A stretch of DNA of 64,000 nucleotides, taken from IMG/VR virus record IMGVR_UViG_3300027708_001637; one strand, written 5' to 3'. Positions 18,338 to 24,370 of this stretch are shown here, in pieces (the stretch's first letter is position 1; every line of letters starts with the position of its first letter). The position numbers and the translations under genes were made by a program. The notes beneath the pieces were generated by a model, which saw nothing but the letters and a program-made list of their open reading frames with translations, searched no databases and was not told the origin of the DNA. This stretch comes from a virus.

Positions 18338-19078
18338 TTATTCAGAAGGTGGGGGTGGTGGCCAAGAACCTGTATGGGCCACACTTCCACCTAAAGGTGG
18401 CAAATGCTGTATTTCAGGTGGCCGAGGGTCTAACCCCATGATAACATACTCCTGTTGAGAGTCAACATTGGACAAATGGGTTACTAGGAGACCTGTGAAA
18501 TCCAAATCTTCTAATCTAAAATCTGCACTTTTAGTATCATCTAATAATACTGTAGTTGTATTCCTAAGCGAGCTATCTATGAAATTTCCATTAGGATCAA
18601 ATCTCAATCTATATTCTGAATGAGTTTGGTTGTTGCTCCAATAGGTCTTATATTGAGTTACTTGGTTGGTTGTGGGATCGAGATAAAATCCCACAAGATC
18701 TAGATTATATCCATTGGTCAGTGAACCAGCCTGTGTGGATGGGTAGTTTTTGGTTAACCAGTCCCTGTTAGAATCTCGTACCATTAGATAAAAACGCCAC
18801 GGACCATCAGCTGTCAAATAGTCCAAATCTATTACTACTCCTCGATCTGCGTGTCCAATAATCTCTTGAAATTTTGCGCAGGCAGATAATTCAAAACAGT
18901 CAAGTAGTGCAGGAATGTTGTCGTTCACTATAAAAACAGTAATGGTAACTGTACCACTTCGACGAGCCACAAAAATAAATTCTCCGTATTCTGATACGCT
19001 TAGTAGGTCGTTAGGCACTTTGGCTAAAGATGGAAAACGAGTTTTTAATACGTTGGTAATTGTTGAAATATTGTTCAT
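18338..19078 (-). CDS. Hypothetical protein
   Basis: 246-aa ORF co-oriented with the upstream fibre gene. Confidence 0.65.
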   Translation of the reverse strand: MNNISTITNVLKTRFPSLAKVPNDLLSVSEYGEFIFVARRSGTVTITVFIVNDNIPALLDCFELSACAKFQEIIGHADRGVVIDLDYLTADGPWRFYLMVRDSNRDWLTKNYPSTQAGSLTNGYNLDLVGFYLDPTTNQVTQYKTYWSNNQTHSEYRLRFDPNGNFIDSSLRNTTTVLLDDTKSADFRLEDLDFTGLLVTHLSNVDSQQEYVIMGLDPRPPEIQHLPPLGGSVAHTGSWPPPPPSE

Positions 19079-21478: not shown

Positions 21479-22057
21479 ATGGCCTACTATACTATCAAAG
21501 ATCTCAACCAACTCAATCACAAGGATGCTAAACGCATAGCCCAACGTCAAGGCACCCAGCGTCAAAGACACAGGTCTTATAGCGAAATTAAAAAACATCC
21601 CCTGTGCAGTACCAAAAATTGCGGCAATACCAGAACTGTAATGGACTATCATTGGACCAGTGGTGCACCCATTTATCGTCCAGTTTGTGCCCAATGTCAT
21701 CAAAACAATACAGTGATGAGATATCGAGCAAAAACAAAAGTCACTTGGATTGATACTATTGGCGACATCATGGCACATAAAGCTGGCTTTGACAACCTCA
21801 ATGACTACTTGAACAGTAAACACACTTATAGAAAATATCGAAAAGACTACTGTGAAAATAGGGATGCTAGATTGGGATTTACCTGTACAACTACTATAGT
21901 TTGGAAAGGTATGCTGGACACTGATCATATAGATGGTGATCCCAGTAATGATGATGCCAGTAATATGCAGACTCTTTGCAAGTGCTGTCACAGTTATAAG
22001 ACTCATGTCAATGAAGACTATGCTTCACAGGGAAGAAAAGCATTGGGAATTAGGTAA
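21479..22057 (+). CDS. HNH-type (His-Me finger) endonuclease
   Basis: LDTDHIDGDPSNDDASNMQTLCKCCHSYKT; promoter TTGACA(21407)-17-TATAAT(21430). Confidence 0.8.
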   Translation: MAYYTIKDLNQLNHKDAKRIAQRQGTQRQRHRSYSEIKKHPLCSTKNCGNTRTVMDYHWTSGAPIYRPVCAQCHQNNTVMRYRAKTKVTWIDTIGDIMAHKAGFDNLNDYLNSKHTYRKYRKDYCENRDARLGFTCTTTIVWKGMLDTDHIDGDPSNDDASNMQTLCKCCHSYKTHVNEDYASQGRKALGIR

Positions 22058-22115
22058 AGTATAATGAAACACTTGATAACCCTTTTGGTATATTTTCCTT
22101 ATGGTATTAGGGACT

Positions 22116-22290
22116 ATAAAACCCCGCTGTAAGGTAGTGCTATATACACACTCGATACACTGGATAAAACCCCGCTGTAAGGTAGTGTAGGGTTACACTA
22201 TCAGGAGTAGTTGATACCCTGTCCGGAGGACCCCTGAAGGGGAATAACCCGCTGTAACCCTAGGGCATATATGCAAAAACCCCGCTGCAC
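22116..22290 (+). repeat. Iteron-like direct repeats
   Basis: ATAAAACCCCGCTGTAAGGTAGTG exact at 22116 and 22164; partial AACCC(C)GCTG copies at ~22246 and ~22275. Confidence 0.85.
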
Positions 22291-22633
22291 AGGTGGGCGG
22301 AGGACCAAAGAAAATACTTAGATGCGCTGTAGAGTATTTGGCGATAGCCTGTCTACGGTGTCAACCATTCTGTCGCACTATAGCAACGATTTTCTACGAT
22401 TTTCCGCCCTAGATTAGACAATTTTTGCGCATTCTGGGGCCAAAATCCCTCTGAAATGGTGTCAAATACTACCAAAACCTGCTCAAAAACCTGGTGATTC
22501 TGTGGTGAAATAGCAACGGCGTCAACAACTCTTGATTGCTCTAACCGTGCCTACCGTGTATAATAAGTACATAGTGTAGAGACAGTGTGTCGAGTATATA
22601 GTATAATATATAGTGTGTTGAGTGACTCTACGC

Positions 22634-22669
22634 TATATAGTGTATATAGTGTATATAGTGTATATAGTA
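22634..22669. repeat. AT-rich 9-bp tandem repeat (TATATAGTG)x4
   Basis: Three exact copies and one variant directly upstream of the tRNA. Confidence 0.85.
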
Positions 22670-22682
22670 GTGTGTATACAGT

Positions 22683-22759
<77 letters not shown>

Positions 22760-22789
22760 TTGATCAACCTTTCACTACGTAAGACCGAC

Positions 22790-22980
22790 TTGTCCACAGG
22801 TTATTCAACCTTTCACTGCACAGGATCGACTTATTCACAAGTTATCCACAGGGTTTCTGGTTATCCACAGCTTATTCACAAGTTGTCCACAAGTTATCCA
22901 CAGGGCAGAGTTATTCACAAGTTGTCCACAGCTTATCCACAATTTTCTGTTATCCACAGGATACTCACAGCTTATCCACA
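22790..22980 (+). promoter_or_regulatory. Array of 12 co-oriented DnaA boxes phased at 11 bp
   Basis: TTATCCACA at 22842, 22861, 22894, 22933, 22950, 22972; TTATTCACA at 22831, 22872, 22911; TTGTCCACA at 22790, 22883, 22922. Confidence 0.88.
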
Positions 22981-23244
22981 GCCTGCTTCAACGACCAAGT
23001 ACTGCGCAGAGTGCATTGTACTGCTCAAACCTTACAGGCTCCTTACGACCACACGACCATTGTGGTCATTAAAGACTCGCGCACCCTCCACGTCCACCCC
23101 AGGCCTGCTTTCGAATATGAGTGTATTATAGCAGGGTTTCCTTACAGGAACCTTACAACCCTGAAGGCAGTGTGGGATTAGAAAGCGGTTGACAGTGAGT
23201 GCAAACGGCCTTATAATAACAGCTTACACACACTAGGAGCACGT

Positions 23245-23406
23245 ATGCAAGTAAAACAGGAAATTTTAGCACTACTGATGCAGGTTGAGCAATTGCTGCT
23301 GGAAGCACAGTGCGATGGCAAACAGTTTGCAGAGCTGGACTGTTTTGAAGAAGCAGACCTGGCAGTAGCACACTTAACACAAGTGGTTGACTATTACGTA
23401 GATTAA
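23245..23406 (+). CDS. Early cassette ORF (53 aa, not in track)
   Basis: Promoter and AGGAG leader; MQVKQEILALL...VDYYVD. Confidence 0.8.
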   Translation: MQVKQEILALLMQVEQLLLEAQCDGKQFAELDCFEEADLAVAHLTQVVDYYVD

Positions 23407-23442
23407 TGTTATAATACAGTTTTAACACACTAAGGAGCACTT

Positions 23443-23829
23443 ATGCAAGTTTTTACTACACTGCACACAGACGGTGGCGGTTACTGGTCGCGCACTGCAA
23501 AGTCCGTAGACATTACTAAACTGGACCTGCAGTACTGCACAGCGGAGCGGGATTTTGGCGAGCTGTGCGTATACTTTACAGGGGACACTTGGGACTGTGC
23601 TAAAATGGGTCTAATTTACACAGACCGGCAGTTTATGCGGGAATTGCAAGCATACCTGCAGACTTTGGGCTTTAGTGAAGCTGAAGCTAAAGATGTAAGT
23701 TACAGCGAGCAGGGTATGCAAACAGGCCGCTATGTGAGTTGTGATGTAGGGTCTACATTTATTGCAGGCCTTGCACGTTTGGACCCTGTGCACGTGGCCG
23801 CTGTAGTTGCTGAGTGCTGGGACATTTAA
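23443..23829 (+). CDS. Early cassette hypothetical protein
   Basis: Own promoter and AAGGAG SD. Confidence 0.85.
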   Translation: MQVFTTLHTDGGGYWSRTAKSVDITKLDLQYCTAERDFGELCVYFTGDTWDCAKMGLIYTDRQFMRELQAYLQTLGFSEAEAKDVSYSEQGMQTGRYVSCDVGSTFIAGLARLDPVHVAAVVAECWDI

Positions 23830-23910
23830 AGACCCTACAGGGAGCAGGGTCATTAGTTGACACTGTTCCCGTTCTGTTGTATAATAACGGCTTACACACA
23901 CTAGGAGTTG

Positions 23911-24027
23911 ATGATGCGTACACTGATAGACATACTGATTGATTTGAAAAATGCTATTGCAGTAGCAGACATAGAAACAGCAGAAGATTTAGCAAACGAA
24001 GCACTAGATTTTGCTACACAGGAATAA
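23911..24027 (+). CDS. Early cassette ORF (38 aa, not in track)
   Basis: Own promoter and SD; MMRTLIDILIDLKNAI. Confidence 0.7.
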   Translation: MMRTLIDILIDLKNAIAVADIETAEDLANEALDFATQE

Positions 24028-24106
24028 CCCTACAGTGCACAGGGTCTTTGGTTGACGCTGTGCACTTTTGGCATTATAATGTATGCTTACACACTAAGGA
24101 GCGCTT

Positions 24107-24370
24107 ATGTTAACAGTTGATCAAACTACACGTTCGTACACAGGTCGTCCAGGATGTATGTGCGGCTGCATGGGCACGTACAATGAGAGCCTGCGTGCCC
24201 GCAAAATGGCCATTACGGCCTTGCTTAAAAATCCAGCAGTTCGTTACGACACGTGGTGTGGTGGTACAGAGGGCGCCCTGTTTGTAGTTACTGCGACCCG
24301 CAACCGTGTACTGTACTTGACAGAGGCGGGCGTGAAAACTGTGCAGGCACTGGGCGTAAAGTCCGAGTAA
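24107..24370 (+). CDS. Early cassette hypothetical protein
   Basis: Own promoter and SD; GCMCGC motif. Confidence 0.85.
   Translation: MLTVDQTTRSYTGRPGCMCGCMGTYNESLRARKMAITALLKNPAVRYDTWCGGTEGALFVVTATRNRVLYLTEAGVKTVQALGVKSE

Follow-up and report, generated by a model that had tools for sequence, protein, structure and literature searches.

A helically phased array of twelve predicted DnaA boxes in the late/early control region of an uncultivated freshwater jumbo phage

DnaA boxes on mobile DNA are understood mainly for the origins of plasmids and prophages and for phage lambda. The locus described here raises the question of why strong, helically phased arrays of DnaA boxes are retained in strictly lytic phages equipped with a replisome. 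It is located in a 64-kb stretch of viral DNA, the whole of which was analyzed and is termed the window. Clusters of DnaA boxes on phage and plasmid DNA are known already; what is notable here is the size of the array, with 12–13 boxes one of the largest such arrays among the matches listed, and its coupling to an undescribed small non-coding unit. The control module itself, made up of a tRNA gene, a backward-facing promoter with the small non-coding unit, and direct repeats, is conserved, and the array is an addition to it. A preliminary description of this DNA drew attention to the boxes. Three things escaped it: the tRNA gene, the conserved G-rich unit with its backward promoter, and how common such arrays are among other phages.

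A scan of the window with the pattern TT[AG]T[CT]CACA finds 12 matches within 191 bp (positions 22790–22980), all on the + strand. This bears out the 12 co-oriented boxes of the preliminary description and its counts of the box types, which are TTATCCACA (six copies), TTATTCACA (three) and TTGTCCACA (three). About 0.006 matches to the pattern are expected in 191 bp. The boxes and two tandem duplications are as follows.

22790, 22831, 22842, 22861, 22872, 22883, 22894, 22911, 22922, 22933, 22950 and 22972, + strand: starts of the 12 boxes, from the pattern match
22764–22845, + strand: 41-bp tandem duplication in two copies (22764–22804 and 22805–22845) that are 80% identical, containing the first three boxes, from a repeat search
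22866–22942, + strand: 39-bp tandem duplication within the array, 1.9 copies with 86% matches, from a repeat search

The gaps from start to start are 41, 11, 19, 11, 11, 11, 17, 11, 11, 17 and 22 bp, and by these the 11-bp runs claimed earlier are exact. The boxes form blocks of two, four, three and three at exact 11-bp phase, with steps of 17–19 bp between blocks. About seven of the 11-bp steps lie between called boxes, and two more are made through a degenerate 13th box, ATACTCACA, at 22961. The strict consensus TTWTNCACA fits nine of the 12 boxes, and the remaining three, the TTGTCCACA copies, have one mismatch at position 3. Outside the array the 64-kb window has seven matches to the strict consensus, which is chance level. 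Across the 12 boxes variation is confined to position 3 (A/G) and position 5 (C/T); the 2-bp spacers and the linkers between blocks vary freely. The duplication that had been noted ahead of the array is real and already includes the first boxes. Both tandem duplications have built much of the array, expanding the 2–10-box cluster of related freshwater jumbo phages. An ORF of 123 aa (22760–23131) runs across the array and is rejected as a coding explanation of it, since the 11-bp period is no multiple of 3 and box number and strand differ among relatives.

The window encodes a T4-type TerL, a DnaB-like helicase, a RecA/UvsX-like protein, a UvsW-like helicase and gp32. The replisome with which the phage had been credited is thus present in these parts, except that the primase is only a weak match. 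No DnaA-family domain was found in the 81 ORFs of the window (best 25 of the 30 families examined, the others being weaker than E 1e-8), in agreement with the earlier statement that the window has no dnaA. The search for the gene elsewhere, in a complete 322-kb relative (G006), also gave no DnaA-family domain. The binder must therefore be supplied by the host, and from its sequence the array is predicted to be a docking pad for host DnaA; every functional step considered below is a prediction in the same way.

Among cultivated phages the PA5oct-like Pseudomonas jumbo phages are closest, with a TerL that is 54% identical. Closer relatives are found in IMG/VR and in JGI freshwater metagenomes (TerL up to 86% identical), and the CheckV completeness of these implies genomes of about 320–370 kb. 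Among GenBank phages there is no close DNA relative, the tRNA being the sole match. PA5oct and Phosso (TerL 50–54% identical) have no phased box pair, which limits the array feature to the closer clade. The remaining gene content of the window includes a ligase, sugar-nucleotide enzymes and a 2878-aa protein. A minus-strand block at 36.7–49 kb has two GDP-mannose dehydratase/epimerase-type enzymes, a TnsA-like endonuclease, an ATP-dependent DNA ligase, a radical SAM/B12-binding protein, a PfkB kinase, an Fe-S biogenesis protein and an AlgH-like protein. One window ORF has a Collagen-repeat Pfam match. Positions 1–205 consist of an 18-bp tandem repeat, with 6.9 perfect copies followed by diverged ones, inside an open-ended 517-aa minus-strand ORF.

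The array lies within a non-coding gap of ~1.2 kb that separates leftward structural genes from a sigma70-driven early region. The genes on its left run leftward up to 22006 and include that of a tail-fibre-like protein, which recovered no related loci when used as search bait. The features of this region other than the boxes are as follows.

22116–22297, + strand: direct repeats with core AAAACCCCGCTG, starting at 22118, 22166, 22245 and 22278, with a weaker copy at 22442; two copies are identical 24-mers (repeat search)
22555–22682, + strand: AT-rich stretch with promoter-like -10 elements and four copies of TATATAGTG (22634–22668), directly 5' of the tRNA (sequence and repeat search)
22683–22759, + strand: tRNA-Met (CAT) gene (ARAGORN; Rfam tRNA, 68 bits)
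23082–23115, - strand: conserved G-rich block GGGGTGGACGTGGAGGGTG (23082–23100), preceded on the same strand by TTCGAA (23110–23115) (alignment and IMG/VR instances)
23125–23133, - strand: extended -10 TGCTATAAT of a promoter that faces backward, toward the G-block and the array (sequence, alignment and relatives)
23189–23217, + strand: first rightward early promoter, TTGACA-17-TATAAT, 12/12 (promoter scan)
23245–23406, + strand: first early ORF, 53 aa, followed by 33 further small + strand ORFs to about 36.3 kb (ORF list)

The order of the composite region is CCCCGCTG repeats, AT-rich 9-mers with promoter, tRNA, boxes, backward promoter with G-rich unit, and first early promoter. The AT-rich stretch has a melting z of only +1.8 and is outside the easiest-melting sites of the window. 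The first box is 30 bp 3' of the end of tRNA-Met, and no + strand intrinsic terminator was found at 21900–24200, with none after the tRNA. On the other side, the extended -10 on the minus strand makes the backward-facing promoter point into the array. Its -35 is poor in the window; relatives have the consensus TTGACA-17. About 209 bp lie between the last box and the first early promoter. Promoters both converge on the array and diverge from it. The site is also a strand switch and a local minimum of cumulative GC skew, a minimum that is confounded by gene orientation. No parS was found beside the array.

The placement of the array at the head of the early region is confirmed by the promoter scan, which puts the first of about 26 sigma70 promoters at 23189. 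From there to 36300 the 34 small + strand ORFs have, nearly each, their own near-consensus TTGACA-17-TATAAT promoter. The early region has a GC content of 0.48, compared with 0.36–0.40 in the rest of the window, and the rise begins at about 19 kb. This suggests a block of distinct composition that was perhaps exchanged.

Related loci were recovered through a homologue of the early ORF at 23443–23829 and through a search with the G-block. In these the module order is a backward TTGACA-17-TATAAT, TTCGAAC, the near-invariant GGGGRTGGACGKSGAGGSTG, often a GTTAGTTRG/CTAACTAAC hairpin and, in a subset, boxes. The number of boxes is 3 in L224, 4–5 in L228, 5 in L238, 4 in L240, 5 in L246, 7 in L049 and 10 each in L318 and L315; L200 and L203 have the G-block unit and no boxes. 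The orientation patterns are rr-fff, ffff-rrrrrr, fff and rrrrrr. With a range of 0–12, neither the number of boxes nor their orientation is conserved. The comparison covers 67 distinct G-block instances with full flanks in IMG/VR contigs. At least two boxes lie within 400 nt downstream of the G-block in 12 of the 67, compared with 0/67 for the control flank (Fisher p = 3e-4), although part of this contrast may reflect the location of non-coding space, since the control flank is largely coding. The array in the window is the largest among the 67 copies tied to the G-block. In some relatives the boxes start 11–26 nt after the G-block, which is the position of the hairpin in others. Relatives carry a hairpin or a bidirectional terminator where the array is approached, and the window has neither.

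A satellite generated by slippage, which the preliminary description had allowed for, is rejected, because the relatives keep 2–10 DnaA boxes at the homologous place, box variation is confined to positions 3 and 5, and a period of 11 bp does not fit coding; judged by this sequence comparison the array is real and maintained. The layout of the window recurs in two relatives, L315 and G006. L315 has CCCCGCTG/TATATACACA repeats, a promoter, tRNA-Met and tRNA-Leu, a terminator, four forward and six reverse boxes, the backward G-block unit and then the first early promoter. G006 has a phased run of six boxes (118861–118925), the outermost two of consensus type and the inner ones weak, that adjoins four CCCCGCTAGACG repeats at 53-bp spacing and a tRNA-Leu. 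Direct repeats with a CCCCGCT core occur in 4–5 copies within ~1 kb of the arrays in four related phages, at the following positions.

Window: 22116–22297
L315: 2301–2693
L297: 2536–2800
L213 (G006): 18664–18846, spacing exactly 53 bp

In L315 every CCCCGCT copy is attached to TATATGTATATACACA, and one of them folds into a terminator hairpin. For the CCCCGCTG repeats, iterons and remnants of promoter/terminator cassettes are both possible readings. Since the whole order of the control region recurs in relatives, the array is, in the genomes compared, no random satellite; it belongs, as an accessory, to a control region that is conserved. The number and orientation of its boxes vary, and in the present phage it is expanded.

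The G-block unit consists of a sigma70 promoter, TTCGAA(C), an optional hairpin of 3–5 bp and the near-invariant GGGGRTGGACGKSGAGGSTG. The hairpin stems differ between copies (CAG/CUG, GGA/UCC, GAGC/GCUC, CGG/CCG and others). There are up to two units per genome, in either orientation, as listed here.

Window: 23082–23133, - strand
L265–L343
G006: about 119.65 kb (- strand) and about 133.5 kb (+ strand)

No Rfam family matches the unit. Mimicry of a host RNA is unlikely, as the G-block has three matches in 185,579 prokaryote species genomes, all in MAG contigs. Comparison by eye with tRNA-like and tmRNA-like structures and with a fixed-spacing promoter gave no matching stems and a spacer of varying length, and these possibilities were dropped. 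The unit is a candidate for a new phage small RNA or cis element. It is conceivable, though rather unlikely, that the array lies inside the transcription unit of a conserved phage small RNA and that DnaA would decide between extension, stalling and an R-loop primer. If true, a large freshwater clade of jumbo phages would share a novel type of replication start or of host-state sensor.

Searching IMG/VR for exact matches to three phased boxes finds at least 119 viral contigs, with arrays of up to 12 boxes. Among the matches listed the flanks encode terminases, portal proteins and recombinases, and none encodes DnaA or DnaN; contamination by bacterial oriC is therefore rejected as their source. 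The arrays occupy intergenic gaps whose median length is 587 bp among the matches listed. Those with at least five boxes lie between divergent genes in 13 of 29 cases and between convergent genes in 3/29 (among the matches listed). Strong sigma70-like promoters within 250 bp point away from the arrays in 27 cases and toward them in 12, against 6.3 expected for each, again among the matches listed. In the same listed matches no flank AT asymmetry is present across 52 one-orientation arrays, no tRNA lies within 500 bp (0/119), and one group has its arrays beside terS/terL. Matches were also found in Vibrio phages BD1 and BD5 and in several microviruses. In the E. coli Berlinviruses P483 (L352, 37.2–37.4 kb) and nasanit (L353), 6–8 co-oriented TTATCCACA-type boxes, mostly at 11–12 bp, lie in the space that separates the terminase gene from the first early genes, and they adjoin T7-like genome-end motifs. 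The Berlinvirus and IMG/VR arrays share with the present array co-oriented TTATCCACA-type boxes at 11–12 bp in a non-coding late/early junction; they differ in belonging to unrelated phage families with other neighbors and in being without the tRNA and the G-block unit.

The preliminary description proposed a decoy for host DnaA, a host-DnaA-driven origin or an injection checkpoint like that of T5. The boxes are genuine, lie at the head of the early region and are accompanied by no phage dnaA, but none of these three roles is established. The reading preferred here, as possible rather than probable, is a DnaA-assisted, transcription-coupled start of replication. Soon after entry, a filament of host DnaA would assemble on the pad, where two converging transcripts of host RNA polymerase are predicted to meet. 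The filament would be a host-supplied accessory of an early, origin-dependent start, helping to open the DNA or to load the helicase, and might also hinder both transcripts as a barrier. Later, recombination-dependent replication (UvsX, UvsW, gp32) would take over. Such a start would have parallels in iteron-type origins with DnaA boxes (P1 oriR, pSC101), in the DnaA boxes of the pBR322 origin, or in the transcriptional activation of ori-lambda that is stimulated by DnaA.

In E. coli oriC, co-oriented 9-mers lie exactly 2 bp apart, with DnaA on one helical face and cooperative filling (PMC4451416), and the phage array has the same spacing as the low-affinity oriC arrays R5M-tau2-I1-I2 and C3-C2-I3-C1. 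The strong-weak-strong arrangement in G006 is likewise one of weak boxes bracketed by two consensus boxes. The phage array is unlike oriC in that its boxes are nearly all of consensus strength and form four blocks with 17–19 bp steps, with no adjoining DUE and no second, opposed array. Homologous clusters in relatives, boxes tied to one side of the G-block and the absence of a phage dnaA are consistent with an origin. So are the converging and diverging promoters at a strand switch and GC-skew minimum, with the reservation already made for gene orientation. In the class as a whole, arrays among the matches listed are in long intergenic, often divergent regions near strong promoters.

The geometry argues against an origin of the oriC type. 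No AT-rich unwinding element adjoins the array 3' of TTATCCACA as at R1; the 3' flank (22981–23100) has above-average stability (z -1.5 to -1.8), and the nearest AT-rich stretch lies 5' of the array at a distance of 110 bp, opposite to the R1-DUE geometry of oriC. The missing flank AT asymmetry of the 52 one-orientation IMG/VR arrays among the matches listed has the same bearing. Box number and orientation vary, and some relatives have no boxes, so that a dosage-type role fits better than a precise unwinding machine. In addition, T4-, T5- and T7-type phages are known to grow without DnaA.

Origins of the iteron type with accessory DnaA boxes are found in P1 oriR, pSC101 and RK2, and the pBR322 origin has a dnaA box. 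Their parts, namely direct repeats, a repeated stretch rich in AT, DnaA boxes and activating transcription, all within about 1 kb, have candidate counterparts in the phage region. The iteron-type parts in the window (CCCCGCTG in 4–5 copies, the four TATATAGTG 9-mers and the array) recur in L315, L297 and G006, with the caveat that the repeats may be cassette remnants. The phage region differs from such origins in having far more boxes and an AT-rich stretch that is neither adjacent nor outstanding. Nor was a cognate initiator gene recognized beside the repeats, no Rep/initiator-type Pfam or PHROG match being found in the flanking ORFs.

A sink or decoy similar to datA is considered unlikely. 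The array would capture host DnaA and perhaps promote ATP hydrolysis, with a capacity that grows with the number of phage copies, until host initiation stops. In E. coli, the DnaA boxes of datA are clustered directly 3' of a tRNA operon, from which read-through transcription passes across them (PMC10950094); the phage array, 30 bp after tRNA-Met with no + strand terminator, has the same position, and read-through is predicted. The boxes are tightly packed and of the high-affinity type, their number has been raised by tandem duplication, and their freedom in number and orientation among relatives is expected if capacity alone matters. Arrays are also carried by many unrelated lytic phages that encode a replisome. 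However, datA has about five boxes in a mixed arrangement, is chromosomal and requires an IHF site. No perfect IHF site (WATCARNNNNTTR) is present in the phage cluster and one-mismatch matches occur at background rate, although the IHF consensus of the host may differ. Further points against a sink are that relatives have only 0–10 boxes and can do with 0–5, that the boxes are tied to one particular spot and not to any spare non-coding DNA, and that a single entering genome provides 12 sites only. Adjacency to a tRNA is not a feature of the class (0/119 among the matches listed). It is very improbable that the 9-mers are iterons for a phage protein, or a neutral expanding satellite that merely resembles DnaA boxes. 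The growth of the array by tandem duplication and an early-region ORF with a winged-helix domain (HTH_39, E 3e-7) would agree with this. Against it, at least 119 unrelated viral contigs, whose gene sets differ, have the TTATCCACA consensus, and it reappears independently in relatives that are without the duplications; the variation is confined to the positions that DnaA tolerates best, and a universal host protein is the simplest binder.

Another reading is that bound DnaA would act on transcription only, stopping or tuning the two converging transcripts, read-through from tRNA-Met and the backward small-RNA unit, and perhaps modulating the early promoters by the DnaA status of the host. This is a doubtful explanation. 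It draws on the lack of an intrinsic terminator on either approach in the window, where relatives have a hairpin or bidirectional terminator, and on those relatives whose boxes take the place of the hairpin. At asnC and datA box 2, bound DnaA is reported to make transcription pause or to attenuate it, according to work cited in PMC10950094, and arrays among the matches listed are generally near strong promoters. On the other hand, an ordinary terminator is a cheaper means, arrays rarely lie between convergent genes (the 3/29 with at least five boxes, among the matches listed), and the ~209 bp from the last box to the first early promoter are too far for direct contact. A role at the leading end of the genome is improbable. 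By analogy with T5, the array would be near the first-entering end and membrane-associated DnaA would pause, anchor or protect the incoming DNA. A literature search on phage DnaA-box arrays gave only the analysis by Davison (bioRxiv 10.1101/866236), in which T5-like phages have eight boxes in the injection-stop region of the terminal repeat, as pairs with a 3-bp spacer in two inverted-repeat units; an entry role is a proposal there too. T5 and the present phage share consensus boxes, a large untranslated repeat-rich region ahead of the first-expressed genes and a replisome of their own. The boxes of P483 and nasanit beside T7-like end motifs, the terS/terL group among the IMG/VR matches listed, and the position of the array at the junction of late and early modules point in the same direction. 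The architecture differs from that of T5, however, since here there is a single 11-bp array with all boxes co-oriented and no matching inverted repeats around it in the window sequence. In G006 about 119 kb separate the homologous region from the contig ends, although those ends may be arbitrary.

Similar arrays in E. coli Berlinviruses make the choice between sink, origin, barrier and entry approachable in a standard laboratory host.

Two minor observations concern the arrays of other phages. A protein family of ~130 aa, with no Pfam or PHROG match, is encoded in 19 contigs among the matches listed and is always transcribed away from a long array 160–600 bp upstream. These contigs (L001, L005, L006, L018, L022, L024, L025, L033, L040, L054, L057, L073, L087, L093, L098, L110, L114 and others) include several of the longest arrays, of up to 12 boxes, among the matches listed. 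No homology was found between this family and a 128-aa early protein. The array is also matched by blastn in the ssDNA microviruses MZ089785, PQ006258, PQ006958, MG945667 and MK496754, and in two of these the match is under or beside the replication initiator gene.
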